Shown here in pieces: positions 8,944 to 64,000 of a DNA stretch of 64,000 nucleotides. Location of the stretch: NCBI GenBank assembly GCA_027858235.1, contig JAQIDC010000055.1, positions 29,826 to 93,825 of the forward strand, read 5' to 3'. This DNA comes from Patescibacteria group bacterium (GTDB lineage Bacteria; Patescibacteriota; Patescibacteriia; Patescibacteriales; BM507). The notes under the pieces are model-generated. The model did not search any database. It had not been told where the DNA came from and saw only the letters and a list, made by a program, of their open reading frames with translations. Position 1 is the stretch's first letter; every line of letters begins with the position of its first letter. The position numbers and the translations under genes are program-made.

Positions 8944-8976
8944 CAAAAAAGATGGTCTCATGTGACCATCTTTTTC
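8944..8976 (-). terminator. Rho-independent terminator downstream of 8997..10769
   Basis: Stem GATGGTC (8951..8957) pairs with GACCATC (8964..8970), extended by A/T runs on both sides. It lies 21 nt past the stop. Confidence 0.6.
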
Positions 8977-8996
8977 TATATATATTATAGTATTTT

Positions 8997-24800: not shown

Positions 24801-27800
24801 ATCTCTAGACTTTGGGCAACATTTGGAGTGAGCCCTGGAACAGACCCGAAGTAGTATGACAATGGCTTTGACTGAGAGCCGGCGTTTGCAACCTCATGAA
24901 TTACCGTAGCGGAATTAATATTATAAGTCTCAATATTTACATCGAAATCTATGTCATCAGACTTTGTAGAATTATTATGATCATTTACAATCTGTCCTAC
25001 GAACCAATCAGAAATACTTGAACCATATTCAGGAATATCCATTTGATAGGAAAAAGTTGGGCAGTCTGTATTTAGAGTACACCCGTTAGCTTGAGAGCTT
25101 AGTCTCGTTCCGCTGTGCCCCGCAACATCTGAATCAAGTGGGTAGTAAACTGTATTAGTAACATTACTTGTAACAGAATCATCGTAGACATAAGTTACTA
25201 CTAATTTAGCTGAAGCATAGGAGATGGAATTGGAGGCTCCTCCTCTTTCAATTCGATACCCAATTTGTCCTTCCATGTTTGCGCTCGCCCCAGCATATGC
25301 TGCCAACTGAGTTTCACTGGTGACGTCATAGAGTAATCTAATCTGATTTGATTCAGTTTCATCGTAAACCAAAACTGTATTCTCATCTTTTAAAATCCTA
25401 TTTGTTCCCGAGAATGCATCTGCTGTACAAGGCTCAACGCAAGTATCAAAAGCTAAATTATAACCACTATAATTTCCTGCATTATTTGTATAAGCCTCAA
25501 ACTGAGCCTCAAAAATTATATAGGCGTTTTTAATCTCTACATCAGACTCCCCTAGTAAAAAATTAAAGGTCGAAAAAGTATTATCTGTATCAGAATTATC
25601 ACCAGTAGATCCATTACCATAATTTATGCCTGCAAAGTATGTAACTGTTTTGGCTTTTCTTGGCTTTGCTTCTTGAGTAGCATAGCTCACTTCTGTGGAA
25701 CTCGCTTTATTCCCATAATCATCATAAGCCCAAATATTAAAAATATAGCTTGTTTCTGGCTCGAGGTCATTTACTCTTGTGGTGAGTGTTCCATTAAAAT
25801 TTAAGTCTAATAAATCTTCATCGCTGTGTTCAGAATCAGATTCAGTAACACCGCTAGTTCCTTCTTTGTAAAATATTTTATAATGACTAAAATTACTATC
25901 AGTTGTTGTTGCTCCAAAAGTTAAAGTAACACTTGTGTCAGTAGAAGTTGACAGAGAAAGTGCTCCTGGTGCATCCGGGGAAACATTGTCAATTAAAAGA
26001 GTTGATGTTGCTGAAATAGTTTGATTAGCATTGTCATCATTGGCAGTTACTTGAATACAATAAATTCCATCCGCAGCAGTAAGATCATCTTTCGTATCCC
26101 AGTCAAATAGAACTGAGTTTGATCCAGAGGCAGTTGTAACCCAACCAGTACTTGTTCCAACTTGATAAGTGCTAGAATTATCAATTATTACCGAATCGAA
26201 ATCAGCTGAAATATTTCCTGATGTTTCGTCCAAGGTCGGGTCTAGCGGCGTCCCAAAAGTACAGGCCGAGCCTGATTCATAGTCAATCCTAACTCGAACA
26301 TCATCATCATTCCCGTCATCAACTTCAATAGATATATCAACGATACCAGTAGCATCTGTTTTTTGAGCAACAGAATTAACTGAAGAAATTGGAGGAACTA
26401 ATTGAGCATTCGTTGTAGCCGTAACCTCCGTGGCCGCCGCTACTAAATTTCCATAATCATCATAAGCCCAAATATTAAAAACATACTGCGTGCTCGGAAA
26501 AAGGTCTGGAATATTTACAGTACTGGCCCCGTTATAATTAGCTAAATCCATGTCGGTATTTGTAAAAGATTCATCTGTAACTACAACTCCTGAAGATCCT
26601 TCTTTATAATAAATAATATACTTATCAAAATTTGTATCACTAGAGACGGCTCCAAAATTGAGAGTTACCGAAGTCCCATCAACTGAGTTGTTTGTCAGGG
26701 CCCCAGGTGTAGTTGGATTAACATTATCAACCGTAACAGTTTGAACAGCCGATGTTGTTTGGTCTACTGTTCCATCATTTGCTGTTAAGCGCAAACAATA
26801 ATCTCCATTCCCTGTTGAAACATCTGTTTGAGAGTCCCAATCAAACAAAACAGAATTAGTTCCGGAGGCTGTTTCGATCCAAGCTGTCGCATTACCGATT
26901 TGATAAATATTTGAGTTAAGAACATTAGGATCGCCAAAATCAGCACTAGTATCTCCATCAACCTCACTTAAGGTAGGATCAGCCGTAGTTCCGAAAGGAC
27001 AAGCCCCAGCAGAATATTCAATTTGAGCACTAACATTATCATCATCGGGGTCATCAATTTCTATCGAAACATCGACGACTCCACTGGCATCAGTTTTTTG
27101 AGCGGCACTATTAAAACTCCCTGTTGGGGGGTCATTTGGAACAGAATAATCAACTTGTATCCTCACCTGATCAACATATAATTCCCTAGGTTGACCATTG
27201 TTGGTGTTGCTGCCATAGATTCTTACATCTAGGTTTTGAATGTCAGACCAAGTCCAAGTTCCTGGAGCTTGAGCATCATTTGTTATATCAAAATAAAAAG
27301 TAGTTCCTGAATCAGTAGTCCCCATAGTAGCCCCTGTTAATGTTTGGGTAGATCCACTGGTGCTTCCACTAAACCTAGGAACAAGGTAGGCGCTAACGTC
27401 AGCAGATTCAGCATAAGCCTCAATTCCAATTTCGACACTATTTATAGTATATGTTTCAGAAGGAACTGAATTGGCATTTGCTTCTAAATAATTCGCAGAA
27501 TCATCAACATTTCTTCTCGGAATATCTCTCTTGGCATATGTACCATCAACCGAATCCCAAGCATTGGCAGAATTTATCCAACCAATACTTGTACCTCCAT
27601 CATATTCATAAACAGCATCAGAAGCTATTTGCCATTTCCTAGCCTCGAAAAATATTGTACTTCCTTTTTCATTGGCTACTTGAGCTGGTCCCAATAAAAA
27701 GAACTCTGGAGAAACATCAGGGGCATCAAAAACATATTTTAAATCATATGTTCCCCCAGACTGCCAATCAACTTCCCAAACAATTACTTTTTCATTCTCA

Positions 27801-48054: not shown

Positions 48055-48327
48055 ATGGCAACAAAGAAAAAAGCAGTAAAAAAGAAAGTAGCTAAAAAAC
48101 CAGCGAACAAAAAGGTGGTTAAAAAAGTAGTTAAAAAAGCTGCTCCAAAAAAGAAGGTGGTTAAGAAAGTAGTTAAAAAAGCTGCTCCAAAAAAGAAAGT
48201 GGTAAAAAAAGCTGCTCCAAAGAAAAAAGCTGCTCCAAAAAAGAAAGTAGCTAAAAAACCAGCAAAGAAGAAAACTGTTAAAAAAGCTGCTCCAAAGAAA
48301 AGAGTAGTTAAGAAAAAAAAGAAATAG
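48055..48327 (+). CDS. Lys/Ala/Val-rich histone-H1-like basic protein
   Basis: 90 aa made almost entirely of KKAAPKKKVVKK-type repeats. Has a strong RBS, its own promoter box and a terminator. The underlying DNA is an imperfect tandem repeat of about 42 nt. Confidence 0.65.
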   Translation: MATKKKAVKKKVAKKPANKKVVKKVVKKAAPKKKVVKKVVKKAAPKKKVVKKAAPKKKAAPKKKVAKKPAKKKTVKKAAPKKRVVKKKKK

Positions 48328-48478: not shown

Positions 48479-50239
48479 TTATTTTGTTTTCCTTTTTAAA
48501 TAAATCTCTTTATTTACATCCTCAATTTCTTTTCCAATAAACTCTTCTGAAATATCTAGAGCATCTTGTAGCTTATCCTTTACTCTTTTCTCTGACTCAG
48601 AAAGACCTGTTTTTTTATCAGCTAATTCCATTAGTTCTTCAACTTCCTCACGTAGGGCAGTAAATATTTCTCCTAATTTTAATTTTGCTTCATCTGTTTC
48701 TCGGGCTATTCTTATTCTTTCTTCTCCAAACTTGTGTTTAATAAACCAAATATATGTTATTAATCCTAGTATTATTAAAAGTAAGATTAAAATAATCACT
48801 AAACCATAAGATTCTATTATGCTTGGAGCTATTACTACCAAAATGTGTTTGGATGTTTTGAAACTTTGGGCCCCTCTATCATCAACAATCCAAGCCTGAA
48901 TTTCGTAATTTCCTTTTTCTAATTTTTCTTTATGAAAATATGACCAATTACCCTCTTCATCTGTTCTGGTTGTAAATACTTTAATGTCTTTATCAGATGT
49001 CCCTATACTTATATTTATATTTACAGATGGATAAAATGATTTTCCTCGTATAACCAACTCTTCATTTGTTTTTATTATATTTGGGATGTCTGAAATTATA
49101 GGTGATTTCAATGGTTCAACAAAAAAGTCAATAGAAGAAGAAGCAATATTCTGAGCATTGTCATAAATTATCAATTGGATATTGTGTTCACCTGGATCGA
49201 CCCTGTCCATCTTATACCTTCCATTTGAAATCATTCCCGTTTCAAGAGTCTTAACTTCGTCTCCTTTAACAAGTTCGTAATAAGCTATTCCTGAAGTTTC
49301 ATCGCTAGCATTAAAAACAAGTTCTGGTGAGGGATTGTTGTCATCTCCATCATTATCAACTCTAACACCATTTAAAATAGGTGATTTTGTATCAACTAAG
49401 AACTTTTTGTGAGCAACCATTCCCCATCCTGCTTTATTCTGATATTTAACGTGTATATACCATTCTCCATCCTCAACATCATCAAACTTTTTAGTTTCGA
49501 TAATTCCATCAGGAATTGGTCCTGGGTCAGATTCGGCTTCGTCTGTTATGGATATACTTACCCCGGTCAGCTCAGCTAGCATTTTCCATGAAAATTCAGG
49601 ATCATTATTTGAATACCACACATCATCTTCTTTGTGCGTCTTTGAGTTAATTTCTGGTTTTGGAGGCAATATTCCACGAACAACTTCTTTTTCTTCTGGT
49701 TCAGGTTTAGTTGGTTCAGGTTTTGGCTCTTCTTCTTTTGGCTCTATCAAAACATAGGTAGCATTACCATAACCCTCGACAACGTCCGTGCCTTTTCCAT
49801 CTTGGGCTAAAACAGATCCAGAAGAAAAAGTAACCGAAGTATTGCCTGCTTTTTTAACATTGAAAACAATAGAAAAAATTAAACCAGCATTGCCTGTATA
49901 GGCACCTGGCAAACCTCCCCCGTATGAAATAGTACCAGCTGAATTTGAATAAGTTGGGTCAGTTACCCATAATTTAAAAATAGTTCCAGAATCAGAAAGT
50001 CTAGAAACACTTAAATATTCTGGATCAAATTTTAAACTTCCCTCTGAGGCATTAATACCAGGACTTCCTCCGCTATTAACCATTACTTTTGCAGTTATTG
50101 TCCCACCCTGAGTGTATTCACCACTAGATGGAGACAAAAACAAAGTTGCCCCCGCAGCATTAACAGTGGCACTAAAAAGTGGTAATAAATTAATAACAAA
50201 AAATGCTATTAATATAAATAAAAATTTTATCCTCCTCAT
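48479..50239 (-). CDS. Membrane-anchored surface protein with cohesin-like domain (paralog of 3463..5202)
   Basis: 586 aa. Signal peptide, then AAGATLFLSPSSGEYTQGGTITAKVMVNSGGSPGINASEGSLKFDPEYL...GGGLPGAYTGNAGLIFSIVF. C-terminal TM LVIILILLLIILGLITYIWFI plus a coiled-coil tail. Confidence 0.6.
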   Translation of the reverse strand: MRRIKFLFILIAFFVINLLPLFSATVNAAGATLFLSPSSGEYTQGGTITAKVMVNSGGSPGINASEGSLKFDPEYLSVSRLSDSGTIFKLWVTDPTYSNSAGTISYGGGLPGAYTGNAGLIFSIVFNVKKAGNTSVTFSSGSVLAQDGKGTDVVEGYGNATYVLIEPKEEEPKPEPTKPEPEEKEVVRGILPPKPEINSKTHKEDDVWYSNNDPEFSWKMLAELTGVSISITDEAESDPGPIPDGIIETKKFDDVEDGEWYIHVKYQNKAGWGMVAHKKFLVDTKSPILNGVRVDNDGDDNNPSPELVFNASDETSGIAYYELVKGDEVKTLETGMISNGRYKMDRVDPGEHNIQLIIYDNAQNIASSSIDFFVEPLKSPIISDIPNIIKTNEELVIRGKSFYPSVNINISIGTSDKDIKVFTTRTDEEGNWSYFHKEKLEKGNYEIQAWIVDDRGAQSFKTSKHILVVIAPSIIESYGLVIILILLLIILGLITYIWFIKHKFGEERIRIARETDEAKLKLGEIFTALREEVEELMELADKKTGLSESEKRVKDKLQDALDISEEFIGKEIEDVNKEIYLKRKTK

Positions 50240-50251: not shown

Positions 50252-50689
50252 TTAAACTTTTTGAATTTCTATTTTCATTTTACCTTTTTGTAATCTTAGA
50301 AAAGGCAATTTCAAAACCAAAATTCCATTTTTAACCTTAGCATCAATTTTAGAAACATCAACTTCTTGTGGTAGAATGATTTGTCTGTAAAACGAACCCC
50401 AAGAACATTCTTGTCTTAAGTAATTCTTAGCGTCTTCTTCTACATCAATCAAGGGCAACATCCTTTTTCCCTTTAGCGTTAAGACATCATTCTCATTCTC
50501 GATGGAAATATCAAGAGTTTGAACATTAATCCCTGCTACCAAAGCAATAATGTAAATTTCTTCCTTTGTTTGAAAAATATCTACATCAAGCTGCATAAAC
50601 CCTTGAGGTTTTTTTTCTTTTTTTGGTTCTTCTTTCTTCGTGTGCTCGTCTGATTCTATTTTGTCTTTAATTTTATCTAGAAAGCCCAT
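50252..50689 (-). CDS. Small heat-shock protein (Hsp20/alpha-crystallin family)
   Basis: 145 aa with SD AAAGGAG. Contains DVDIFQTKEEIYIIALVAGI...LTLKGKR...GSFYRQIILPQEVDVSKIDAKVKNGILVLKLP, an alpha-crystallin domain pattern. Confidence 0.85.
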   Translation of the reverse strand: MGFLDKIKDKIESDEHTKKEEPKKEKKPQGFMQLDVDIFQTKEEIYIIALVAGINVQTLDISIENENDVLTLKGKRMLPLIDVEEDAKNYLRQECSWGSFYRQIILPQEVDVSKIDAKVKNGILVLKLPFLRLQKGKMKIEIQKV

Positions 50690-50988: not shown

Positions 50989-52761
50989 CTATCCTGTCCA
51001 ATAAAACATCATAATAGAAAAATCGGTCAAATCAACATTCCCTGAATCATTTTGATCTGCGCATGCATTGTCTGTATTCCACCAATAAAGCATAATAGAA
51101 AAATCGGTAATGTTTACCTTCCCATCGCCATTAAGATCTCCGTTGGCACACTCAGTTGTTTGTTCTTCTACCTGTTCACCTACTCCAATATTTATTATGC
51201 CCGAGAATTCCGAATAGCCTAAACCCTCCTTGTATGATCTGGCTTTTAATCTATATTGCCCGCCAAATGCTTCGTCCGTATTTAAGATAATATTCCAAAG
51301 ACCCAGAGAATCAACATCTGCTTGTTGTTTTATAATTTCCTCTTCTCTGAGAGCTCTTTCGAGATAGGGATAAAACCATACTTCTGTAAAAGTGCTGGCC
51401 GCCCCATAGCCGTGCAATGCCATTGAATTCCCTGGGTCAACTTCCATAATACTTGTATTGAGGGTTGGTGATATGAAAATATCTGAAACAGCTGATTTGG
51501 TCCCCTCTTCAACATAAAAGGTTGTGTTATAAGTTAATGAATTTTTTCCTTCACGATCAGCTGCCCAAATGCCAAAAGTATAAACTCCACGAGGAAGCTC
51601 ATCTATCCCAAGACTAAAAACCCCAACACTATTTGCTAAAACATTTTGACTGGCTACTCCATCGACTAGCAGATAAACTCTGCTGCCTGGGTATGCAAAG
51701 CCTGAAAACTCAACTGCCGGGTCAGCTAGAGGGACATCATATGGATCAAGTGTACCAGAAGTGACGCCTGTTCCTCCTCCGCCGCCACCATCAGTTCCGC
51801 CATCATCAACAAGTTCATCTCCAATGCCATCCTCTGTAGATGTAGAATCACTATCCCCTGTTCCAACTTCCCCCTCAACTGATTCAACATAAAAAAGAAT
51901 TACATAGTCATCAATATCATCAACAGCATATTGATCTCGACATCGTATATAATATGCATGAAAACCACCAGTAAGGGCTGTTAGAGTTTCTGAATGAAAA
52001 TAGTTCCCAGTATATCCAAAATCATCTGTCATTGAAGTAAAGGGAGTATTTGAAGCTGTCGAATAACGACAATCAGCACTATAATTGCTTACTAAAGACA
52101 TAATGGTTGAAACAGTTCCAAAAGCAAGTGTTCCCGAAGGAGAACCACGTGATCTTATTTTTGGCATATACGATGAAACTGTTACAGCCTCTACTATTGC
52201 TACCATTGGTTCTGCTCTATCTAGAAGATTATTAGAGCTATCAAAAGTTTCAACCTCAAGTCCATAGGAGCCTGCATCTCCTGGATTGATAATATATGTA
52301 TCTCCAAATTCTTCATGGACAGCAATGTCACCAATTTTTATTTGAACATAAGCTCCGGCTGGAATACCTAAATTATTTCGAAGGGTTATTTCAATCGCGG
52401 AGGTAGTTGCTGACCCTGTTATTGAAACTCCATCAGCGGTAAAAATAGGAAAAGAAAACAAATTTCTTTCAACATACCCAGTATCTCTATCTGTTGAAGT
52501 TGCTAAATCAATATCAGTATAATCAAGAGCAACTGGGATTAAAAAAAAGTTATCTTCTGGAGAAATTTTTATTTTCCCACTTGGCGGAATAGCTTCTGTT
52601 GTCCTAAATTTTATTGTATGATTTGCTTGATATCCTGGACGAGAAGTAGTAATATAGTCACTAATTTGTGTTAAATTTTTTGCTTCAATTTTAGGAGCAA
52701 CAGAAAAAACCATCACTGATAGCAATAAAATAATTTTAATTTTCCTATACAATTTATTCAC
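50989..52761 (-). CDS. Secreted chimeric protein: N-terminal domain of the 57742/59343 subunit family, Gly-rich linker, Ig-like domains, C-terminal dockerin
   Basis: The track start at 52848 is TTG and overlaps the upstream gene. GTG at 52761 gives VNKLYRKIKIILLLSVMVFSVAPKIEA, a clean signal peptide. ISDYITTSRPGYQANHTIKFRTT aligns with VSDTISTSAPTTLANHTVGFTT. C-terminus DLNGDGKVNITDFSIMLYWW...DQNDSGNVDLTDFSIMMFYWTG. Confidence 0.7.
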   Translation of the reverse strand: MNKLYRKIKIILLLSVMVFSVAPKIEAKNLTQISDYITTSRPGYQANHTIKFRTTEAIPPSGKIKISPEDNFFLIPVALDYTDIDLATSTDRDTGYVERNLFSFPIFTADGVSITGSATTSAIEITLRNNLGIPAGAYVQIKIGDIAVHEEFGDTYIINPGDAGSYGLEVETFDSSNNLLDRAEPMVAIVEAVTVSSYMPKIRSRGSPSGTLAFGTVSTIMSLVSNYSADCRYSTASNTPFTSMTDDFGYTGNYFHSETLTALTGGFHAYYIRCRDQYAVDDIDDYVILFYVESVEGEVGTGDSDSTSTEDGIGDELVDDGGTDGGGGGGTGVTSGTLDPYDVPLADPAVEFSGFAYPGSRVYLLVDGVASQNVLANSVGVFSLGIDELPRGVYTFGIWAADREGKNSLTYNTTFYVEEGTKSAVSDIFISPTLNTSIMEVDPGNSMALHGYGAASTFTEVWFYPYLERALREEEIIKQQADVDSLGLWNIILNTDEAFGGQYRLKARSYKEGLGYSEFSGIINIGVGEQVEEQTTECANGDLNGDGKVNITDFSIMLYWWNTDNACADQNDSGNVDLTDFSIMMFYWTG

Positions 52762-52783
52762 TCTGTAAAAAATATTTAATTTC

Positions 52784-53200
52784 CTAATTACTGACGTGTT
52801 GTCTCGGCATTGTATTGGACTTCTTTTTTCTCCGCCAATCCATAACAAAGTTAATCAAAATAAGTAAAAATAAAACAACTATTCCTATTATCATCCCCCA
52901 GATTACTTTATTTTGTAGGACTGAGCTTGCAGATTTCAAATCTGTTTCTCTTTTGTCTAATTGAGACTCTCTGGTGTTTAGCCAATCTTCCTTGTCCTTC
53001 AATTGAAGGGCCAGTGTATTCATCGGGTTTGGAGGGACAGAAGCTGAAGAGCCTATCCCAACCGCTCGGGAGAAATTTGCTCCCAAATATTTTGTATAAT
53101 CAATTGGACTAACACCGACAGTATGCAAAAACGAAAATAATATAAAAGAAAATAATAATATTCTAAATTTATGAATATGTTTTACAGTTTTTTTTAACAC
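52784..53200 (-). CDS. Small bitopic membrane protein with coiled-coil ectodomain (hypothetical)
   Basis: 138 aa with a GTG start. N-terminal helix FRILLFSFILFSFL, central coiled coil (QLKDKEDWLNTRESQLDKRETDLK), and C-terminal helix MIIGIVVLFLLILINFV. Confidence 0.4.
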   Translation of the reverse strand: MLKKTVKHIHKFRILLFSFILFSFLHTVGVSPIDYTKYLGANFSRAVGIGSSASVPPNPMNTLALQLKDKEDWLNTRESQLDKRETDLKSASSVLQNKVIWGMIIGIVVLFLLILINFVMDWRRKKKSNTMPRQHVSN

Positions 53201-53345: not shown

Positions 53346-54185
53346 TTACTTCACGCATCTAAATCCAACACCAATACCAATATAGGAAGGCTGGGAAACC
53401 AAATATGCAGAATATACTCCTGCCTCTTCTTCATTTGAATAAAAACCACCACGAGCAACTCCTCTCACTCCAGTGTTTTTAATCCAGAAATAATCATTTT
53501 TATAATTATCACTAGGGCTATCACTAATTTCAATTGCTATTCCATCAGCATTAGCTTCATATACAAAACCTTGACTAGGGAGTATTTCACCATTCAATTT
53601 TCCGTCACTTATCGTTTCGTCTGTCCACTCCCAAACATTCCCGATCATATCAAAAGCACCAAAAGAAGAAACACAAGTCTCACCACTACCAGTAAGCCCT
53701 GGTTGGTTCTTCCAGTTTTCCGCTACCTGGCAATCGCTAGTTAGCCACAATGAATTCTTATCTGGTGTCCCCAGTGAAGCGCTTAGCCATTCTTTATTAG
53801 AAGGAAGTCTTTTCCCGGCACGTGCGCAAGCCTCTCTGGCTTGGGTTTGAGAAATATAAACCCAAGGGATAGCTCCTTCAGCTGAGGCTGGTTTACAATC
53901 AGCATTTGTCATATTAAGTCTAGAATCTCTTTGACTACCAGTATCTTTGTTTGGACAACCATTTCCAGCTGATGCTTCATATTTATCAATACAAAAACCA
54001 CCACCAGAGGAAGGGATATAGGCCATATCAGAAGGACAAAGAGAAGATTCTTTCTCACCACCCAAAAGTGAATCGCTTGCTTTAATCCCAGCGGTCGCTA
54101 AAACAACCGCTAAAACAGAAATAATAATTTCTCTTTTCCCAATAAAGCTCTTTTTCTTTTTTGTTAAATCTATTGTTTGCGACAT
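53346..54185 (-). CDS. N-terminally anchored FGE/SUMF1-domain (C-type-lectin-fold) protein
   Basis: 279 aa. TM IIISVLAVVLATAGI. Motifs FCIDKYEAS, RLPSNKEWLSAS, GNVWEWTDE, ARGGFYS and GFRCVK are the hallmark blocks of the formylglycine-generating-enzyme fold. Confidence 0.75.
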   Translation of the reverse strand: MSQTIDLTKKKKSFIGKREIIISVLAVVLATAGIKASDSLLGGEKESSLCPSDMAYIPSSGGGFCIDKYEASAGNGCPNKDTGSQRDSRLNMTNADCKPASAEGAIPWVYISQTQAREACARAGKRLPSNKEWLSASLGTPDKNSLWLTSDCQVAENWKNQPGLTGSGETCVSSFGAFDMIGNVWEWTDETISDGKLNGEILPSQGFVYEANADGIAIEISDSPSDNYKNDYFWIKNTGVRGVARGGFYSNEEEAGVYSAYLVSQPSYIGIGVGFRCVK

Positions 54186-54201: not shown

Positions 54202-55320
54202 TTATTTATTTTTTTCCTGTTCTGAATTTGTCGAAGAATTATTAATTATCTCTTTTAAATCAACTACGTCACTCCTATTATTCTTTTTTTTCATTGGGGT
54301 TTGTGTTATTTTTTCCTCTCCTGCTTGCCCTGAGCTTATTGAAGGGTGCTGAGCTTTTATTCTCTCTATTTCTTTTTGATTTTGTCTAATTGTTTTTCTG
54401 ATATAAAACTTAATCATTAAAAAAATTAACAATAAAAATCCTAATATACTTCCCAAAACTATAGAAACAATTTTAAAATCTATATACCAGAAATAAAATG
54501 TCCTAGTATCAACTTCGGTTGTTTGCTCTCCATAATGGACAGTGATAACGGCATTGTATTTCCCCATTTTAAAAATTCCTGATTCACCTTCCCACGAAAA
54601 ATCCCAAGATTTTGTGCTCTTCGGCAAGACATTTCCGTAGGCTGTGTCTTTGTTTATATCAATAACATCTTTTTCGTTACCAAACATATCCTTGATTACA
54701 ATATTGCCTTTCGGTTGCAAATGAACATTACCTGTATTTTCAAATCGGAGCTTAAAATTGACCTTCGGCTCTTTATAATAAGTTTTATTGGTGCTAAATT
54801 CTCTTATCTTTCCTTCCTCAATAACATCCCCAGAGATATTTACTAAAATAAGTGAAGATATCATTGAAGAAATACTTAATCCTGAACCATAAATATCCTC
54901 ATTTGGTTTAGTCCCTACCAATACAGCCGCATAATGCCCTCCTGGTTCTGCCGTTTCTGGAACTTCAATTTCAAAAGGTATTTCAACGCTACCATAAGGT
55001 GCTATTTCAAAAGGACCATCTTGAATATCCATCCATTGTCTCAAAAACCCAGATTTACTCCCCTCTCCTTCTGACTCTTCATTTGAGATTAATTCAACTC
55101 CTCCCTCTGTGCTACTTCTAAAATCTTTTATATCAGTATATACAACCAGCTTTTCTTTATTATTGTTAACGAGCTTTACTGTGCTAAGCCATCTCTCCCC
55201 AGGATTCATATTATTTTTTATGAGAGGTGGAGTTAAGGTCATTTTCAAACTATCCTCTTGAGCAAGGACAGCAGAAGAAAAAAACAAAGACAGAATTATT
55301 ATAAATAGATATTTTTTCAT
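54202..55320 (-). CDS. DUF916/DUF3324-like surface protein with C-terminal TM anchor (paralog 1 of 3)
   Basis: 372 aa with a signal peptide. Contains PGGHYAAVLVGTKP and ENTGNVHLQPKGNIVIKDMFGNE. C-terminal helix IVSIVLGSILGFLLLIFLMI plus a cytoplasmic tail. Confidence 0.5.
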   Translation of the reverse strand: MKKYLFIIILSLFFSSAVLAQEDSLKMTLTPPLIKNNMNPGERWLSTVKLVNNNKEKLVVYTDIKDFRSSTEGGVELISNEESEGEGSKSGFLRQWMDIQDGPFEIAPYGSVEIPFEIEVPETAEPGGHYAAVLVGTKPNEDIYGSGLSISSMISSLILVNISGDVIEEGKIREFSTNKTYYKEPKVNFKLRFENTGNVHLQPKGNIVIKDMFGNEKDVIDINKDTAYGNVLPKSTKSWDFSWEGESGIFKMGKYNAVITVHYGEQTTEVDTRTFYFWYIDFKIVSIVLGSILGFLLLIFLMIKFYIRKTIRQNQKEIERIKAQHPSISSGQAGEEKITQTPMKKKNNRSDVVDLKEIINNSSTNSEQEKNK

Positions 55321-56349
55321 TTATTTTGATTTTAAATTTATTATTTTTTCCTCCTTGCTTCCTTCTTTTATAACCTTTATTCTTTCGGGCATTGCCTTGC
55401 TTTCGGAGTGTTTGTAATGATATGTTCTTTTAAAAATAAGCGCACTTAAAAGAATTATAAAAAGTGAAATTCCTATTCCAAAAAAAAGCAAGAAAGGAAG
55501 AGTCGCTACAATAACATAAACAGTATCTTGAATCTCTTTTGAAATTTTTTCTCCATATTCAATTTCCATTCTAGCTTTATATTTTCCGGTTTTTAGATTA
55601 TTATTCCCCCTAAGTTCAAGAGTAAAAATTTTGCCAGCTGCAGCAGTTTTAAATTCTGGATTTATACTGATAATATCTACCTCTTCACCTCTCTTATTAT
55701 ACAAATAAACATTCCCTTTCGGGGCCAAGTCAACATTGCCTGAATTATTTAGTTCCAAAAATAAAACTGGCCTAGGGTCAATAAATATTTTTTTACTTGG
55801 ATAATATTTTAATATACTAGCCTTTTCAATCGTCTGATCTTCAACTTTTAAATTAATAAAAAGTTTTGGCGGACTTGTTTTGACTGCATTTTCTTCAGCT
55901 TCCACCCGATGGGCTCCATGGGCAAAGGTGATACTTACAAAATATTCATCAGGGATAGCATCATGGCTTACATCAATTTTAATTGGCAGGGTATATTCTT
56001 CTCCAGGGGATATGTCAATGGCATTTCTCTTAATACTTATCCATTTAGTCATTAAATATTCTCTATCGAGCAATCCTTCTGAGATTTTTTTTTCACCTTC
56101 GTCCAAGTCTTCGAGTAAGGGATAAATATTTAACTTATGCGTGGTGTTATTTTTTAAAACTACACTATATTCAAGCATTGCTCTTGGGGCAACTGAATCA
56201 TCAATAACCTTTGGTTCTAATGATAGATCTCCCTCTTTTTGGGCATGGGCAATGTTACAAAGTAAAGAAGGTGAATCACAATATGAGAGAAGCCGACCTG
56301 GGGCAAAAGAAAATACAAATATAATTATAATAATAAATATTTTTTTCAT
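55321..56349 (-). CDS. DUF916/DUF3324-like surface protein with C-terminal TM anchor (paralog 2 of 3)
   Basis: The ATG at 56349 (MKKIFIIIIIFVFSF) is preferred over the TTG at 56361. Contains NNSGNVDLAPKGNVYLYNKRGEE and C-terminal helix LPFLLFFGIGISLFIILLSALIF. The stop abuts the next start. Confidence 0.5.
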   Translation of the reverse strand: MKKIFIIIIIFVFSFAPGRLLSYCDSPSLLCNIAHAQKEGDLSLEPKVIDDSVAPRAMLEYSVVLKNNTTHKLNIYPLLEDLDEGEKKISEGLLDREYLMTKWISIKRNAIDISPGEEYTLPIKIDVSHDAIPDEYFVSITFAHGAHRVEAEENAVKTSPPKLFINLKVEDQTIEKASILKYYPSKKIFIDPRPVLFLELNNSGNVDLAPKGNVYLYNKRGEEVDIISINPEFKTAAAGKIFTLELRGNNNLKTGKYKARMEIEYGEKISKEIQDTVYVIVATLPFLLFFGIGISLFIILLSALIFKRTYHYKHSESKAMPERIKVIKEGSKEEKIINLKSK

Positions 56350-56353
56350 GTTC

Positions 56354-57466
56354 TTAAGCAAAGACTATTAAATAAACTATTCCTATCAAAAGAATTACCG
56401 AAATTACAACCACTGAAACAATTAATACAAGATGAGTGGTTGGAGATGGCCCTTCATATGTTTTTACATATTTAACTTCAGCCAAACCAGCCACCTCCAT
56501 CGCTTTTTTAATAGCTTTGTTTTTATACATTCTTAAAAGAAGCCAAATGATAATAGCGAGGAATATTATTGCAGTCACAATGGCAGAAATAATTTTCCAG
56601 GGTAAAATCCAAAAAGATCGTTCAGCATAAAGAGTCTGCATCCCTTGTCCACCCATCCCCGTTGGAGTCCCGTAAGTTAGGCCCAGAGTTGCGGTATATC
56701 TACCAACGGCCATATCACCTATCCAATTATGTTCAAATCTTCTAAAAGTTTTTGGCAAAATATTGGAAACCTTTTCGTTAAATATTATTTCTTCTACTGT
56801 TTTTCCTATTTGATTTTTAATCGTGATTGTGCCAACTGGGGCTCCGTGAACATTCCCTTTGTTTTCAAGTCTACTAGTAAACTTAATATCAAAAGGAGTA
56901 TTATAATACTCCTTGTCAGTGCTAAATTCTCTAACAGTTATCTCTTCATTGGCATCGCCTTTTACTTGAAATAATATCAGGGTTGCAGCCTGTTGTCCTA
57001 TAGACATTCCCGCTCCTCTATTTTCAGAGTCTTGTTTAAACTCAGGCGGTTTTGTTCCGAAAACTACAGCACCATAATACCCCCCAGGTCCAACTTCCAT
57101 TGGGACTCTGACAAAAAATGGGATATCCTTTGATTCATTTGGCAAAAATGAAATTCCGCTGGTAGCTACCTCAATCCAAGAAGCCAGAAAAGAACCGCTC
57201 TCACTACCTGGTTCAATAAGTTTAGCTTGACCTAATTCTCCCTCAGCCTTAAAATCTCTTAAAAAAACAAATATTTCTCTTGGAGCCTCTGATTCATTTG
57301 TGACTGTAACAAACTTTGAAATAACTTGCCCAGGATCAACCAAGTCTTCAATTCTTACTGGCGATATTTTTATTCCATCTTCACTTTGAGCAAAAACTTT
57401 TTGGCCTAAAAAAAATGAAAAGAGAAAAGATAAAACAAAAAATGCTACAAAATACTTTTTAGTCAT
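56354..57466 (-). CDS. DUF916/DUF3324-like surface protein with C-terminal TM anchors (paralog 3 of 3)
   Basis: 370 aa. Signal peptide ...VFAQSEDGIKISPVRIEDLVDPGQ. Contains PGGYYGAVVFGTKP and ENKGNVHGAPVGTITIKNQIGKT. Two C-terminal helices. Confidence 0.5.
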   Translation of the reverse strand: MTKKYFVAFFVLSFLFSFFLGQKVFAQSEDGIKISPVRIEDLVDPGQVISKFVTVTNESEAPREIFVFLRDFKAEGELGQAKLIEPGSESGSFLASWIEVATSGISFLPNESKDIPFFVRVPMEVGPGGYYGAVVFGTKPPEFKQDSENRGAGMSIGQQAATLILFQVKGDANEEITVREFSTDKEYYNTPFDIKFTSRLENKGNVHGAPVGTITIKNQIGKTVEEIIFNEKVSNILPKTFRRFEHNWIGDMAVGRYTATLGLTYGTPTGMGGQGMQTLYAERSFWILPWKIISAIVTAIIFLAIIIWLLLRMYKNKAIKKAMEVAGLAEVKYVKTYEGPSPTTHLVLIVSVVVISVILLIGIVYLIVFA

Positions 57467-57741: not shown

Positions 57742-58782
57742 CTAATAAGTTGGAGTCGCAATATAAGTTAATGTAGTACTATAATCACCTGCTTCTTGCA
57801 AAGCATCGATTTCAACTGAATATGCTATATTGGATAAACCTTTATCGGCTGTTCCACTTGAAGATGGACCATCGTGAGCCATAATAACAGACGATGTACC
57901 AACTGATAATCCGGTATAAAATCCATTAGTATAATTGACCACGCCATTGAGTCCATCACTATCATCAGTTGCAACACCAATGTGCCCCCAAGTAGTTATG
58001 TCAGCTAAGTCTCCAGTCGGAGATGCCCAATCTGTTGGGGTGGTGGTTGCCGAACCTTCAACAAAACTATCAATGATAGCCCCCGCTGCAGTTCTGAAGT
58101 CATCATTTTGGGTTACAGTTACCTGGAAACCAGCAGATGCATTTGTTGTTACTCCTAGTTGTTGACCAACAACATACTGTGTCCCTGGCAAAATATCACC
58201 AAAAGGAGTTGTTGTTGCAGTTGAGGTTGCTGTAATCGTGTCTCCGTTTACCGTTTGACCAGCATCTACACCTGCAACTGCAAATGTTAGAGTTGAGTCA
58301 ACGTGAGCAGTAACAGTTACGGTATCAATAATAGCAATTTTTACTATTGATGATTCTTGTAAGACATCAGTGCTAAGGTATGTTCTAACCTCAATGTCGT
58401 AAATTCCTGCTGTAGGATTTGTGACAGCATCCACTAGAAAGGTGTATGGAGTAGAACTAGCAAGAACACCAGTAAAGGTACATCTTGCAATTTCTGTTGA
58501 TTGCACACTTTTTGTAGTGGTTGCTGTTGCTGGACAAGTGATATTGTCAACAAGAACATTTCCAAAAGTAGCGGGTACTTCAACTTCAACATAGCCACCA
58601 GCATCAAGATCAACGCCTGTTGTGAAACCAACAGTATGATTAGCTAGAGTAGTTGGAGCTGAAGTTGAGATTGTATCACTAACGGCCGATAGTGATGCAG
58701 CCTGAACCATCGGGATGTAAGCGTATGACGACATCATTGAAAATACAACAATAAGCGTCAGTACTTTTCTTAATTTTTTCAT
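57742..58782 (-). CDS. Secreted subunit-like protein (T/A/V/G-rich) sharing the C-terminal domain of giant protein 2; ends ...QEAGDYSTTLTYIATPTY
   Basis: The ATG at 58782 (MKKLRKVLTLIVVFSMM...VQAAS) matches the paralog's start, whereas the track start at 58839 is TTG. The N-terminal domain is shared with 50989..52761. The C-terminal roughly 190 aa are shared with 59343..60437 and 61083..64000. Confidence 0.6.
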   Translation of the reverse strand: MKKLRKVLTLIVVFSMMSSYAYIPMVQAASLSAVSDTISTSAPTTLANHTVGFTTGVDLDAGGYVEVEVPATFGNVLVDNITCPATATTTKSVQSTEIARCTFTGVLASSTPYTFLVDAVTNPTAGIYDIEVRTYLSTDVLQESSIVKIAIIDTVTVTAHVDSTLTFAVAGVDAGQTVNGDTITATSTATTTPFGDILPGTQYVVGQQLGVTTNASAGFQVTVTQNDDFRTAAGAIIDSFVEGSATTTPTDWASPTGDLADITTWGHIGVATDDSDGLNGVVNYTNGFYTGLSVGTSSVIMAHDGPSSSGTADKGLSNIAYSVEIDALQEAGDYSTTLTYIATPTY

Positions 58783-58913
58783 GGGAATTGAAAATATTAA
58801 TTTTTTAATTTTTTTGTTTAAAAACAAGCTTGTTTTCAATTGTCTATTTTACCGAGTCGACCTTTTGCCGCATGGGGATCACGAAGCAGGCTCAGTCCAA
58901 AACAATTATTGTT

Positions 58914-59342: not shown

Positions 59343-60437
59343 TTAGTAAGTAGGTGTTGCGATATATGTAAGGACTGTTTCATAGTCACCCGCTTCCTGT
59401 AATGCAGATATTTCAGTTGTATATGCTACATAGGTCATCCCTTTGTCGATAGTTGACCCATCAGCAGAAGCATCATGGTACATTACCTCAACTGCATTAG
59501 CTGAACCGTATCCATCAAAACCGACATATAGTCCACTATCAAATGTTGCCCCGAAAGTATCTCCTGCTGCCAGGGATAAATCATCTGATGTTAATCCCAT
59601 GTGACCATATGTATTAAATTCATCAATAGTCCCCGCTGGCGAAACCCATGCTTGAGGAGTGGTTGTACCAGTACCGTCTAGAGCATCCCTAAAACTATTG
59701 ATTGTTGAATCACCATCTGATCTTAACTCATCATCTTGATAAACAACTACCGAGTAACCATCATCAGCATTTGTAACAACTTTTAACTCTTGGCAAAGAG
59801 TACTTGACGCAGTCGTACTTAAGGTTCCGAAATCTAGTAGAGTAGATGAAGCAGAAGTATCAATCCCGCAAGTAACACCATTTACTACAGCTGCTGTAGA
59901 CGTTCCTGAAATTGTGAAATTAAGAGTAGATGTAACTCTAGCTGTCATCAAGACATTATCTACAATCGCTGTCATGACATCAATTTGGTCATATACAGTA
60001 CCAGCTCCATCGGATGATTTAATCGTTGTTGTATACATATCAGCGACTGGGTTTGTAACATCAGCAATCGTTAACACATTTACTGTTCCTGTGGCGATAG
60101 TCGTGGTAGCGGCCACAATACATGTAGTTACATTCGATGCAACTTCTGCAAGAGCATCAAAACCAGTAGGACATGTAACATCTCCTGGTACATAACCATC
60201 AAACAAAGCATCCATTGTAATCTCCACTTCGTCACCAGTTACTAATTCAGTGGCTATATTTGTAAATGTGAATTCATGATCTGAAAGTGCTCCTGGGTCA
60301 GAATCTGTCAATGTTTCCTTTGCATCAACCAAGGCATTGACCGCATTAGCGTATGGTATCGCCGGATAGGCTCCATACATTGTCATCATCGATAGCATCA
60401 CTATCCCGATGACTATTTTTTTTCTAAGTTTTTTCAT
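59343..60437 (-). CDS. Secreted subunit-like protein, paralog of 57742..58782; ends ...QEAGDYETVLTYIATPTY
   Basis: 364 aa. MKKLRKKIVIGIVMLSMMTMYGAYPAIPYANA is the signal peptide. Both domains align with 57742..58782. Confidence 0.6.
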   Translation of the reverse strand: MKKLRKKIVIGIVMLSMMTMYGAYPAIPYANAVNALVDAKETLTDSDPGALSDHEFTFTNIATELVTGDEVEITMDALFDGYVPGDVTCPTGFDALAEVASNVTTCIVAATTTIATGTVNVLTIADVTNPVADMYTTTIKSSDGAGTVYDQIDVMTAIVDNVLMTARVTSTLNFTISGTSTAAVVNGVTCGIDTSASSTLLDFGTLSTTASSTLCQELKVVTNADDGYSVVVYQDDELRSDGDSTINSFRDALDGTGTTTPQAWVSPAGTIDEFNTYGHMGLTSDDLSLAAGDTFGATFDSGLYVGFDGYGSANAVEVMYHDASADGSTIDKGMTYVAYTTEISALQEAGDYETVLTYIATPTY

Positions 60438-61082: not shown

Positions 61083-64000
61083 TTAGTAAAATGCTGGCAC
61101 AAGTATATAGACTATACTAGTTTCATAGTCTCCTGCTGCCTGATTTTCTGTAATATTAGTTCTATAAACCATGTCTACTTCTTCATTTGTAACTGGAATA
61201 TGACTGTACGAGACTTCTTCCATGCTTATACTTAATTGAGCGTAGGTATTATTTGGTGAAAATCTAGATGGAGATACCCCTGAAAGAGTGTCATCTCCAG
61301 TGTGGTAACCAAAAGCGCTAGGATCAGGCAAAAGGGGCCAAGATGCTGGAGCTGAATTTATAGCAGAAACAGGCTCAATTAAATCTCCACTGTTGCTTAT
61401 TAAATCTTGAGTATAATAAACAAATAGCTGGTATCCAGTGCCTGCATTTGTGCTAATATTAAACCTTTGTACACCAATTGAGTCAGCCCCAGGTGCCAGG
61501 GTTCCGAAAGGGATACTAGACGGGGTTGTACTAATATTGGCTGTAATTCCCTCTGTGGAGCCACCAGACGAAAAGCCGGTCACTGAATAGTCTATACTTC
61601 CTACTGTTGTTATTAAACTAGGGTATGTGTTAAGACTTCCTTTTGCAATTGCCTCTAGAGCATTATTATCATAGGCACGAAAATAATAGGTAACAAAGTT
61701 TGTAGCACCATTATTTCTAATTGTAAATTCCCATTCACCTATATCACCAGCTGGCAAATCATAAGTCGTAGTTGAAATACCTGATTCATTATGCGTTCCG
61801 CCTATTATAACCCCAGGAATTGTGGTTGTGCTAATTACGTCATTGTCTTCATCTACACCATCCCCATAAGTCCAAGCACTAATAGAGCCGATTTCACCAA
61901 CAAAATTAACATCTGACGAAAAATCAGAAAAAGTTGAATATTCCAGACGCACTTTTACATTATCACCAGTAATCCCTTCAATTTCTCTTATGGCTAATCT
62001 TAGCTTAATAGTTCCACCATCAGTAATGTCATTCGGACTAGTATTAAGACTAGCGGCACTAGTAGTTGGTGTTTCATTTTGTTCATCATGGTACCATTGC
62101 CAATCTTCAGTTTGAGCTTGATATTTTATTATCACTGTTACTTCAGTGTTTGACACTGCTTTGTTCCCAAAAGAATCATAGGCCCAAATTCTAAAAACAT
62201 ATTGATGATTAGTTAGGAGTCCGGTAATTGTTGTAGTTGTGGCTCCATTGTAATTTATAAATGCTAAATTTGAATCTGAAGTGCTTGCCCAAAGATTATC
62301 TGATTCTGTGACCCCAGAACTACCCTCTTTATAATAAATACGATAATCACTAAAATTAGTATCAAAAGTGGTAGTAGAAAGGCCCAAAGTGATACTATTG
62401 CTTGTTTTAGCAACTTCAAATAGATTTCCTGGAATGGTTGGATCAATATTATCTATAGTTAGAGTCGTTGTCGCTGGCAACACTTGCTCTTCAAAACTAT
62501 CAAAGGTTGTTAGTTGCAAGCAATAGTCTCCATCAGCCAGTGGAATATCCAGGTTTGTTGTCCAGTCAAAATTTACTGTATTAGCTCCTGCAGCAGTAAC
62601 AATCATTCCCGAAGATGTTCCTACTTGATAGGGGTAATTGTTATCTATTGCTGGTTGCCCAAAGTCAGCTATAATATTTATTAAATTTTCATCAAGCGTT
62701 GGGTCAAGTGGACTTGCAAAATTACAATCAAGACCGGAAACATATTCTATTTTCGCTTGATTTAAATCCCCACCAGCATCTTCAACATCAATAGATATGT
62801 CTACTATCCCAGTCCCATCTGTTTTTTGGACGGCCGAATTAAACCAAGCATTCGTTGGTGGAGCTAGGGTTAATTCAGGATATCTGTTGTAAATTTCAAC
62901 TGGTGTTCCTTCATTGGTTAGTCTGAAACAATAAACATTCCCAGCGCTAGAATAGATAGACGGTTGAAAAGCGTACTCCATTTCAGTATAATCTCCTGCA
63001 GCTAAATCTATGAGGCTTGAAGTACTGCCAGGATTTTCAACCATACTACCAGAAACAAAGCTATAAGCCTCTTCGTTTAGAAGTTGTTCAGTTGTTGGAG
63101 ATTGATCAATAAAATAAACACTATCAACCATTTCAAGATGTTCAAAACTGGCCGTATCTGGAATATCTATCCAAGTAGAAATGTTAGAACAAGTTGTTTC
63201 TTTTATCCCATACTCTAGTTCAAAACTATAAGCACTCATATCCACATCTCCTGTGTTGGCCATGGAAAGTCTTAATCTAATCGGCTCCTCTCGCCCAATA
63301 GGGACTGCAACCGTAGGGTCATTTACATCTTCATTTTCCCTCCAAGTAGCTGAGAGAATAATCGTTGTTGTTGTTGAAACTTCTGTGATTGCTTGTGATT
63401 TGTTGCCATAAGAATCATAGACCCAAATATTAAAAACATAATCACTATTTTGAGACAAGTTTACTATTGAGGTTGATGCAGTTCCATTATAATCAATAAA
63501 ACCTAGGTCAAGATCATTATATTGATTAAACTCTAAATCATTTTCAGTTACACCACTAACTGCTTTTTTATAAAATATTTTATACTCTGAAAAATTTGAA
63601 TCTGCACTAGCCGATCCAAAGTTCAAAACAACACTAAAGCCTGTTACACTCTCAACCCCTAAATTTCCTGGGGCTGTAGGGTTTGCATTATCAATATATA
63701 CTGTACTTGTTGCCGAAACCGCCTGATCATCAATACCATCATTAACCGTTAATTGCATACAGTAAACTCCGTCGGCACCTGGTAGTTGCGCCTGGGTTGG
63801 CCAATCGAAGTTGATAGTATTTGAACCACTTGATGTAATAATCCCCGTGCTTGTTCCAATTTGATAAATATTGTCATTTTCTATTCCAACAGTTCCATAA
63901 TCAGAGCTGATGTTTGTTTGCGTTTCATCTAGAGTTGGATCAAGAGGAACACCGAAATCACAAGTTGCTCCTAAAACATAGTCAAGCCTAGCAGTTGCTA
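61083..64000 (-). CDS. Second giant surface protein, C-terminal 970+ aa (5' end beyond the right edge of the window)
   Basis: The track ORF starts at an internal Met (63758), but the frame stays open to 64000. Upstream codons read ...NTINFDWPTQAQLPGADGVYC-MQLTVNDG, the middle of a module also found in the first giant protein. Contains 2 FN3 domains (NIWVYDSYGNKS, RIWAYDSFGNKA), 2 jelly-roll-like modules, and the C-terminal subunit domain ending AAGDYETSIVYILVPAFY. Confidence 0.85.
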   Translation of the reverse strand, partial: ATARLDYVLGATCDFGVPLDPTLDETQTNISSDYGTVGIENDNIYQIGTSTGIITSSGSNTINFDWPTQAQLPGADGVYCMQLTVNDGIDDQAVSATSTVYIDNANPTAPGNLGVESVTGFSVVLNFGSASADSNFSEYKIFYKKAVSGVTENDLEFNQYNDLDLGFIDYNGTASTSIVNLSQNSDYVFNIWVYDSYGNKSQAITEVSTTTTIILSATWRENEDVNDPTVAVPIGREEPIRLRLSMANTGDVDMSAYSFELEYGIKETTCSNISTWIDIPDTASFEHLEMVDSVYFIDQSPTTEQLLNEEAYSFVSGSMVENPGSTSSLIDLAAGDYTEMEYAFQPSIYSSAGNVYCFRLTNEGTPVEIYNRYPELTLAPPTNAWFNSAVQKTDGTGIVDISIDVEDAGGDLNQAKIEYVSGLDCNFASPLDPTLDENLINIIADFGQPAIDNNYPYQVGTSSGMIVTAAGANTVNFDWTTNLDIPLADGDYCLQLTTFDSFEEQVLPATTTLTIDNIDPTIPGNLFEVAKTSNSITLGLSTTTFDTNFSDYRIYYKEGSSGVTESDNLWASTSDSNLAFINYNGATTTTITGLLTNHQYVFRIWAYDSFGNKAVSNTEVTVIIKYQAQTEDWQWYHDEQNETPTTSAASLNTSPNDITDGGTIKLRLAIREIEGITGDNVKVRLEYSTFSDFSSDVNFVGEIGSISAWTYGDGVDEDNDVISTTTIPGVIIGGTHNESGISTTTYDLPAGDIGEWEFTIRNNGATNFVTYYFRAYDNNALEAIAKGSLNTYPSLITTVGSIDYSVTGFSSGGSTEGITANISTTPSSIPFGTLAPGADSIGVQRFNISTNAGTGYQLFVYYTQDLISNSGDLIEPVSAINSAPASWPLLPDPSAFGYHTGDDTLSGVSPSRFSPNNTYAQLSISMEEVSYSHIPVTNEEVDMVYRTNITENQAAGDYETSIVYILVPAFY

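Follow-up and report, generated by a model that had tools for sequence, protein, structure and literature searches.

How is a pilus that is assembled without an usher or an outer membrane brought to a stop and held at the cell? So far this has only been modelled, through the protein PamR, and the question is raised again by a gene on the minus strand (50989..52761) of a stretch of 64,000 nucleotides of Patescibacteria DNA (contig JAQIDC010000055.1), referred to below as the window. The gene, which we call the target, lies in a pilus operon and encodes a secreted protein in which the N-terminal domain of a pilin (N-domain) is joined to a dockerin. We propose, with a probability of about 0.55, that this protein is the subunit which ends the chain of a Pam-type pilus at the cell and anchors it there, in a Parcubacteria-like bacterium of the Candidate Phyla Radiation (CPR). 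The closest genome locus is that of Candidatus Parcubacteria bacterium BM507, and the GC content is 26-40%.

Pam pili are surface filaments that occur in abundance and, in the only case in culture, bring about the contact of an ultra-small parasitic CPR bacterium with its host. A 2026 preprint describes them as donor-strand-exchange pili with membrane-anchored chaperones (bioRxiv 10.64898/2026.03.03.709456): PamC and PamD are PapD-like chaperones with a C-terminal transmembrane (TM) helix, and the Pam linker is the strand given to the C-terminal domain (C-domain) of the neighbouring subunit. The models of the same work place PamT, which has the acceptor domain only, at the tip and let PamR, made of a strand, two fibronectin type III (FnIII) domains and a TM helix, terminate the filament and anchor it to the membrane.

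Layout of the target protein

The open reading frame (ORF) extends over 50989..52848. Read from the GTG at 52761, a start that agrees with the ortholog at locus L002 and lies 22 nt past the stop of the upstream gene, it encodes a protein of 590 residues with a Sec-type signal peptide. An AlphaFold2 (AF2) model based on an alignment of 94 sequences has a mean predicted local distance difference test (pLDDT) score of 90. From the N-terminus, the protein consists of the signal peptide, a Pam-like pilin N-domain, a linker strand, an extra beta-sandwich, a disordered spacer, two immunoglobulin (Ig)-like domains and a dockerin:

50989..52761, minus strand: target gene for a secreted protein (ORF list, AF2, purpose-built hidden Markov models (HMMs), L002 ortholog for the start)
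52681..52761, minus strand: signal peptide, residues 1-27 (MNKLYRKIKIILLLSVMVFSVAPKIEA, followed by KNLTQ), read from the sequence, with an AF2 helix at 2-20, and aligning with the pilin signal peptides
52195..52680, minus strand: pilin-type N-terminal beta-sandwich, residues 28-189 (hhalign against 79 pilins; AF2 strands)
52156..52194, minus strand: linker, residues 190-202 (VEAVTVSSYMPKI), a candidate donor strand that aligns with the donated linker strand of the pilins, IDTVTVTAHVDST (AF2)
51871..52155, minus strand: extra beta-sandwich ('mid' domain), residues 203-297 (AF2, sandwich at 203-292; alignment)
51739..51870, minus strand: disordered acidic and Gly-rich spacer, residues 298-341 (AF2 pLDDT below 50)
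51172..51738, minus strand: two Ig-like stalk domains, residues 342-530, with strands at 349-417 and 422-527 (BLASTP, AF2, weak Big_6 match)
50992..51150, minus strand: type I dockerin, residues 538-590 (Pfam PF00404)

Cleavage of the signal peptide would be expected after residue 27. Compared with the window's own pilins, the N-domain has an insertion of about 40 residues. The beta-sandwich at residues 203-292, a part of the layout that the initial annotation had not singled out, belongs to a mid domain with a conserved CRYS...YY[IV]RC pattern; this domain is found in about half of the target family and is missing, by alignment, from L004, P0002 and P0003. A PDB sequence search with the target returned only weak dockerin matches (best E 0.027) and two weaker non-dockerin ones, and a Foldseek comparison of the whole model with the PDB, in a copy that does not include PamA and PamB, gave only generic multi-Ig proteins and is not diagnostic.

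The donating half of a pilin

Three genes upstream of the target encode the two pilins and a tip-like protein of the window:

57742..58782, minus strand: Pam-like pilin with N-domain, linker and acceptor C-domain (NF058581 E 1e-5; AF2 mean pLDDT 94)
59343..60437, minus strand: second Pam-like pilin, 35% identical to 57742 (NF058581 35 bits, model positions 3-148)
61083..63998, minus strand: large tip-like protein that contains FN3 domains and, at its C-terminus, a Pam acceptor domain (pamCTD HMM E 2.5e-17; NF058581)

The NCBIfam model NF058581 (CPR_Pam_pilin_C) matches the C-termini of 57742, of 59343 and of the large protein (61083..63758) with E-values of 1e-5 to 1e-8, the window pilins scoring 25-35 bits, under the curated cut-off of 55. 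It also matches 78 of the 79 members of our pilin alignment. These matches place the window's subunit family with the Pam pilins PamA and PamB, as a distant branch belonging to Parcubacteria. In the AF2 model of 57742 the N-domain occupies residues 30-151, an extended segment (IDTVTVTAHVDST) residues 152-164 and the acceptor domain residues 165-344. The longest ORF of this gene opens with a TTG at 58839; P0151 (346 residues), which is 100% identical to the 57742 pilin and labelled 'hypothetical protein' in the metagenome-assembled genome (MAG) of a Patescibacteria group bacterium, and all homologues open with the ATG at 58782. A PDB sequence search with the pilin found no match at E<=10. Foldseek comparison of its model with the PDB gave MSCRAMM proteins, integrin and some chaperone-usher adhesins, which is not diagnostic; about 125-136 columns of the model also align with BslA, the Bacillus biofilm hydrophobin (4bhu), with a TM-score of 0.60-0.66 normalised to BslA.

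The initial annotation held that the N-domain aligns with both subunit-like proteins. For the first of them BLASTP (against 57742..58839) aligned target residues 1-199 with residues 20-180 at 25% identity and an E-value of 3e-10, and in this alignment both motif matches that had been quoted were recovered. Part of the score comes from the signal peptides, and the mature sequences leave a single high-scoring segment pair of 39 residues (30.8 bits, E 5e-5), compared with 23.9 bits for the best of 200 shuffles. When the N-terminal 173 residues of the target family were compared as a profile with the 79-pilin alignment, hhalign gave a probability of 99.2% and an E-value of 1.2e-19 over 128 columns, so that formal alignment supports the homology. 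This alignment spans the mature N-terminus through the linker strand, ending in ...MVAIVEAVTVSSY against ...KIAIIDTVTVTAH, and the AF2 strands of the target N-domain correspond to those of the pilin model. The second subunit (59343..60437) gave no significant pairwise match with the target; its identity to 57742, 35% along the full sequence (E 7e-56), relates it to the target only transitively, which qualifies the claim. True pilins that bear the N-domain subtype of the target exist as well (P0101 and P0136).

The other half of a pilin is absent. NF058581 does not match the target at E<=0.1, nor does our purpose-built pamCTD HMM, and both models do match the two window pilins and the tip-like protein. 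The mid domain (residues 203-297) was considered as a degenerate acceptor domain and ruled out, hhalign giving it a probability of 0.85% against the pilin family. Of the donating half of a pilin the target thus keeps the N-domain and part of the linker strand; it is without the accepting half and therefore cannot be a polymerising pilin. The tip-like protein is the reverse case: it has the acceptor domain and no donor motif, YPSLIT replacing the V-x-V-T-A-x-V linker in the alignment. Its reading frame is open to the end of the window, and its N-terminus lies outside. A tip-like counterpart at locus L001 (L001:68-1351) also bears the Pam acceptor domain, and its residues 5-75, with repeated S-x-NY motifs, match NCBIfam NF058579 (CPR_pilus_PamT) with 57.7 bits against a cut-off of 240. 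With tip-like proteins that have only the acceptor side, pilins that have both and a target that has only the donor side, the three classes are complementary.

The linker as a candidate donor strand

In both AF2 models the last strand of the N-domain is followed by an extended stretch of 13 residues without a partner (target 190-202, with a pLDDT of about 74; pilin 152-164). In the pilin family this linker is the most conserved stretch of all, with column frequencies of 91% for V155, 75% for V157, 82% for T158, 99% for A159 and 100% for V161. The target family has V190, any residue, P192 (63%), V193 (82%), any residue and V, M or L at 195 (74%), followed by a degenerate part and then a PP motif. 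Both families share an I/V-x-x-V-x-V pattern, while the second half of the linker is degenerate among the target-type proteins. In the window's own target, residues 190-199 read VEAVTVSSYM, and the inward-facing V193, V195, S197 and M199 stand opposite V155, V157, A159 and V161 of the pilin. As far as sequence can tell, the register of the linker is preserved, and only its first half is constrained family-wide. Cognate pilin and anchor pairs, compared by eye across loci, gave no clear signal of linker co-variation.

A large family with exchangeable C-termini

A word-seeded search with the N-terminal half of the target found three proteins only, and an exhaustive profile search with N-domain and linker against 1.84 billion representatives was needed. 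It revealed a family of at least 656 clusters at 50% identity (E<=1e-3), 126 of them at E<=1e-30, all named 'hypothetical protein' in the database. The matched domain nearly always lies at residues of about 30-200.

We classified the C-termini of the best 150 family representatives of the 656 clusters. A dockerin end was found in 110, 74 of which have the full layout of mid domain, two Ig-like domains and dockerin. Six end in a hydrophobic (TM) helix with a basic tail, three have a PG_binding_1 domain above the Pfam cut-off (P0002, P0099 and P0138) and two are true pilins with an acceptor domain. The other 29 are mostly fragments, with some full-length proteins such as P0004, which ends in a C-terminal TM helix and looks like a covalently 'pre-polymerised' stalk. 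In P0002, P0003 and L004 a low-complexity spacer begins right behind the linker strand. Across these sequences the conserved unit is the pilin N-domain plus linker, joined to what appear to be interchangeable envelope anchors. Such swapping of anchors is expected of a protein that is held at the cell, not of a tip adhesin. Two dockerin-type members of about 1000 residues, P0037 and P0122, have an insertion of about 350 residues inside the N-domain.

Some contigs with this CPR-type operon, those of L004 (CAZMYO010000005.1), P0219 and P0222, are filed under 'uncultured Gammaproteobacteria' and 'Planctomycetes bacterium' MAGs. These filings are probably binning errors and not a sign of a distribution beyond the CPR.

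Conserved gene neighbourhood

From 48.4 to 64 kb of the window every large ORF lies on the minus strand. The gene order is tip-like protein, two pilins, three chaperone-like proteins, FGE-like protein, small two-TM protein, target, Hsp20 and cohesin-TM protein. The genes not yet listed are:

54202..57466, minus strand: three chaperone-like paralogues that all have a TM helix at the C-terminus (ORFs; weak WxLIP_PGBD match; conserved synteny)
53346..54185, minus strand: FGE-sulfatase-like protein with an N-terminal TM segment
52784..53200, minus strand: small two-TM protein, probable partner of the target (HMM synteny; family alignment)
50252..50689, minus strand: Hsp20 gene between target and cohesin gene (Pfam HSP20 56.5 bits; synteny)
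48479..50239, minus strand: membrane-anchored cohesin protein (Pfam Cohesin 28.5 bits against a cut-off of 24.1; Big_13; conserved downstream position)

We compared 26 loci, namely the window, eight found by protein look-ups or genome scan, 14 found by metagenome scan and three seeded with pilins, and classed their ORFs with HMMs derived from the window and the relatives found first. For the metagenome pattern scan alignment A2 was used; the broader N-domain alignment A6 was too diverse. In each of the 22 loci having a target-type gene and upstream sequence, this gene directly follows the small two-TM gene; it also lies downstream of chaperone-like and acceptor-domain genes wherever there is enough upstream sequence. 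This gene order is invariant across the 22 loci, which come from distinct samples and show identities down to about 35%. Of the 14 dockerin-type loci with at least 2 kb of downstream sequence, 12 have cohesin-TM genes there; the two TM-type loci for which downstream sequence is available (L007 and L008) have none. The three pilin-seeded loci with DNA all contain a target-type gene, and a fourth, from called genes only, has the same order. Because the pilin-seeded loci all contain it, the target-type gene is, on the evidence of synteny, a core part of this type of pilus operon and not an occasional passenger.

The initial annotation had explained the target by a local domain shuffle that joined two systems of the window. 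In its place we find an old and widespread component of pilus operons, and a recent chimera peculiar to this genome is ruled out by the family size and the conserved synteny.

The small two-TM protein, of about 130-145 residues (also at L001:5774-6160 and L002:9474-9908), consists of an N-terminal TM segment, an exported part with the conserved motif [VI]GVSVSVPxNPxNxLAxQL, then a coiled coil, another TM helix and an NFYLDxRxR tail. It matched no family, including the Pam-named NCBIfam models. Its ORF, taken as open between stops, abuts or overlaps the target-type ORF in most loci; in the window a gap of 22 nt separates the two genes.

The chaperone-like proteins have a PamC/PamD-like architecture, a likeness drawn from the preprint's description only. 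Those at 54202..57466 and a further one at 7728..8792 match Pfam WxLIP_PGBD (DUF916) weakly and have a TM-helix end as in the 'WxL-interacting protein' of Firmicute WxL/Csc clusters, a hint that Pam systems and WxL clusters may be related by evolution. The position of the FGE-like gene inside the operon is kept in L002, L003, L023 and L025, and none was seen in L024. Ser356 of PamA bears an unidentified modification (10.64898/2026.03.03.709456), and the FGE-like enzyme might modify pilins. Hsp20, a normally cytoplasmic protein family, is encoded here between two exported proteins, a position kept in L002, L003, L023, L024 and L025. Between the cohesin gene and a response regulator lies an ORF of 90 residues (48055..48327, plus strand) that consists nearly entirely of KKAAPKKKVVKK-type repeats and resembles a histone H1 or HU-tail-like basic protein. 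The window further contains a giant ORF of 4675 residues (15845..29872, minus strand) with a GC content slightly above that of its surroundings; giant genes, there rich in FN3, are likewise found next to the pilus operon of L023, L024 and L025.

The dockerin cassette and its cohesin partners

The Pfam model Dockerin_1 (PF00404) matches target residues 541-585 with 27.0 bits against a cut-off of 22.9. Two Ca-binding repeats of the DxNxDGxVxxxD type, DLNGDGKVNITD and DQNDSGNVDLTD, are present, and AF2 places two dockerin helices at 551-559 and 578-586. As the initial annotation had claimed, the C-terminal half of the target aligns with the product of 6439..7707: target residues 342-590 (two Ig-like domains and dockerin) match residues 181-422 at 38% identity (BLASTP, E 9e-41). 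Judged by this match, 6439..7707 is the source or a sister of the C-terminal cassette of the target. In neither protein did Pfam identify a glycoside hydrolase, carbohydrate esterase or polysaccharide lyase catalytic module or a carbohydrate-binding module. The paralogue belongs to a second minus-strand cluster (2044..10769), in which the order of chaperone, dockerin protein and cohesins resembles that of the pilus operon and in which no recognisable pilin or small-TM gene was found:

8997..10769, minus strand: Thr/Ser-rich protein of 590 residues
7728..8792, minus strand: chaperone-like protein
6439..7707, minus strand: Ig-Ig-dockerin paralogue with a Cys-rich N-terminal region in place of the pilin N-domain (BLASTP; Pfam dockerin 26.5 bits)
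5227..6288 and 3463..5202, minus strand: cohesin-TM proteins
2044..2550, plus strand: small cohesin-like ORF by the cluster

The cohesin protein of the pilus operon (48479..50239) consists of a signal peptide, a cohesin, Ig-like domains, a TM helix and a cytoplasmic coiled coil. From its domains and its position we propose it as the putative receptor of the target dockerin.

Proposed role of the target

Taken together, we picture the following course of events. After Sec export and removal of the signal peptide, N-domain and linker of the target would dock onto the last pilin, and the linker would fill the open groove of that pilin's C-domain, displacing the membrane-anchored chaperone. As the target itself is without an acceptor C-domain, nothing could be attached behind it and growth would stop. 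The rest of the protein would form a stalk made of the extra beta-sandwich, a flexible spacer of 44 residues, two Ig-like domains and the Ca-binding dockerin end. This dockerin would plug into the cohesin of the type I membrane protein 48479..50239, two genes downstream, or alternatively into that of a paralogue such as 3463..5202 or 5227..6288, and so fasten the filament to the cell; the Ig-like domains present on both dockerin and cohesin partners could span the wall. The operon would then supply a complete set of tip (acceptor only), shaft pilins (donor and acceptor) and base (donor only, plus anchor).

In donor-strand exchange, a subunit that has a strand to give and no groove to fill can only take the last, cell-proximal position, where polymerisation ends. 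Apart from such a terminator, membrane-anchored chaperones are all that ties the growing fibre to the cell; once the last of them is displaced, the fibre would come loose if the terminator had no anchor, and this need explains the anchor modules. The polarity of the filament is assumed here by analogy with chaperone-usher pili and with the AlphaFold-based Pam model of the preprint. The initial annotation had seen in the target a subunit-type head presented on membrane-anchored cohesin proteins. The link to these proteins is supported by the conserved gene order (12 of 14 loci); the retained donor part and the missing acceptor point to capping and anchoring, a role different from that of a head on display.

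Several observations weigh against this proposal. Strand insertion and dockerin-cohesin pairing are predicted steps, and the Pam filament polarity and the very concept of a terminator rest on AlphaFold models (10.64898/2026.03.03.709456). The weakest link of the mechanism is the linker: the T-A-x-V half that is invariant in the pilins is degenerate in the target family, where only V/I-x-P-V-x-[VML] is conserved, and 63% of the members have a proline at the third position, so that by its sequence a full-length donor strand is not assured. The N-domain also occurs as nine tandem repeats in P0004, a protein of 3077 residues, and can thus be a plain structural module. Two dockerin-type loci (L004 and L018) show no cohesin gene nearby, and the small two-TM protein, with its beta-strand-like motif, could itself be the membrane tether.

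Alternative explanations

Some of these observations would fit a different role, in which the cohesin scaffold displays the pilin-like N-domain as an independent surface module, for instance an adhesin, a decoy or a platform where chaperone-subunit complexes dock or nucleate, and no strand is donated. The dockerin and the cohesin-TM neighbours, which such a display needs, are solid; the donor-like linker is conserved over one half, often with a proline; P0004 illustrates the use of the N-domain as a generic repeat module; and the insertions of about 350 residues in P0037 and P0122 could be a binding module. We nevertheless consider a displayed domain unlikely, since it leaves unexplained the sharp module boundary right after the linker, the kept I/V-x-x-V-x-V register and the fixed single-copy place in a pilin and chaperone operon. 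A nucleator, moreover, should be of the acceptor type, and the operon already has tip-like, acceptor-only proteins. That the target is a generic Ig-repeat surface protein, whose likeness to pilins reflects a shared beta-sandwich fold and whose location is meaningless, is highly improbable: the generic multi-Ig proteins returned by Foldseek for the whole model would suit this explanation, but profile homology at an E-value of 1e-19 runs through the linker, and the gene order does not vary in 22 loci from distinct samples with identities to about 35%.

Another possibility concerns the neighbouring gene. The small two-TM protein (52784..53200) could be the real PamR-like terminator or tether, leaving to the target an accessory part as wall-spanning spacer, length regulator or secondary link between base and cohesin. 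Its gene adjoins the target-type gene in every locus with upstream sequence, the ORFs abutting or overlapping in most, and its exported VGVSVSVP motif, coiled coil and TM helix loosely recall the 'strand plus TM' arrangement. We regard this as quite unlikely: the protein has no homology to any Pam-named NCBIfam model, the motif continues into PxNP and a helix, and the swapping of dockerin, TM and PG-binding anchors within the target family indicates that the target itself is anchored. A terminating anchor subunit remains our preferred explanation for the target. Extended to the family, the chances seem about even that many Parcubacteria-type CPR bacteria end Pam-like pili with a donor-only subunit on a swappable anchor (dockerin-cohesin, TM helix or PG-binding), alongside the small two-TM protein.

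If this is true, a large unannotated family (at least 656 clusters at 50% identity, all 'hypothetical') would gain a concrete role, and Parcubacteria-type genomes would join Saccharimonadia and Microgenomatia as bearers of the Pam system. A function would also be found for the non-cellulosomal cohesin and dockerin genes whose presence in CPR genomes is puzzling, with cohesin-dockerin pairing used as a non-covalent coupling of pilus to membrane. By exchanging one anchor module for another (dockerin, TM helix or PG-binding), nature has in effect run a swap experiment, and its outcome points to anchoring as the conserved function.

Comparison with known systems

As to the Pam pilins PamA, PamB and PamE, the target is homologous in N-domain and linker to their distant relatives, the Pam-like pilins of the window, and shares with these the signal peptide and the operon; unlike a Pam pilin it is without the C-terminal truncated Ig-like acceptor domain. 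With PamR of Ca. Mycosynbacter amalyticus (WP_260763282.1), compared here by description only, it has in common a pilin and chaperone operon, Sec export, beta-sandwich domains, the absence of a pilin acceptor domain and, in our proposal, a tie to the membrane. The job proposed for PamR is also the same: its strand would enter the last pilin, elongation would cease and the filament would be tethered (bioRxiv 10.64898/2026.03.03.709456). PamR, however, consists of an N-terminal strand, two FnIII (RbmA-like) domains and its own C-terminal TM helix, whereas the target has a full pilin N-domain before the strand, a long stalk and a dockerin instead of the TM helix, so that its anchoring would be split over two proteins. 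The target matches none of the Pam-named NCBIfam models; among the proteins tested, only NF058581 and NF058579 were matched.

Cohesin-dockerin pairs are the glue of cellulosomes. The target resembles cellulosomal and non-cellulosomal anchoring of this kind in its type I dockerin with two Ca-binding repeats and in the placement of cohesins on cell-bound proteins. The cohesin carriers of the window are, however, single-cohesin TM proteins, not SLH- or sortase-anchored scaffoldins, and the cargo would be a pilus. A literature search for dockerins or cohesins tied to CPR pili found nothing relevant, and the Pam preprint makes no mention of either (10.64898/2026.03.03.709456). The anchoring of a pilus via dockerin and cohesin is described in no paper that we found.

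In sortase-assembled Gram-positive pili, a dedicated basal pilin links the fibre to the envelope covalently. The target family would likewise represent a dedicated last subunit, and its PG_binding_1 variants (P0002, P0099 and P0138) would attach to the wall; unlike sortase pili, it would rely on non-covalent strand donation combined with a dockerin, TM helix or PG-binding domain, and it has no LPXTG motif. The logic is shared by PapH, the terminator and anchor of chaperone-usher P pili. PapH has kept a pilin fold, in whose groove no strand exchange takes place, and stays at the outer-membrane usher. Like the role proposed for the target, PapH donates a strand, cannot be extended and ends the fibre at its cell-proximal side. 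The two have no sequence relationship, the groove domain is missing entirely from the target, and the target would sit, via dockerin and cohesin, on the cytoplasmic membrane of a bacterium without an outer membrane. By analogy, the target would do the work of PamR or PapH in a split form.

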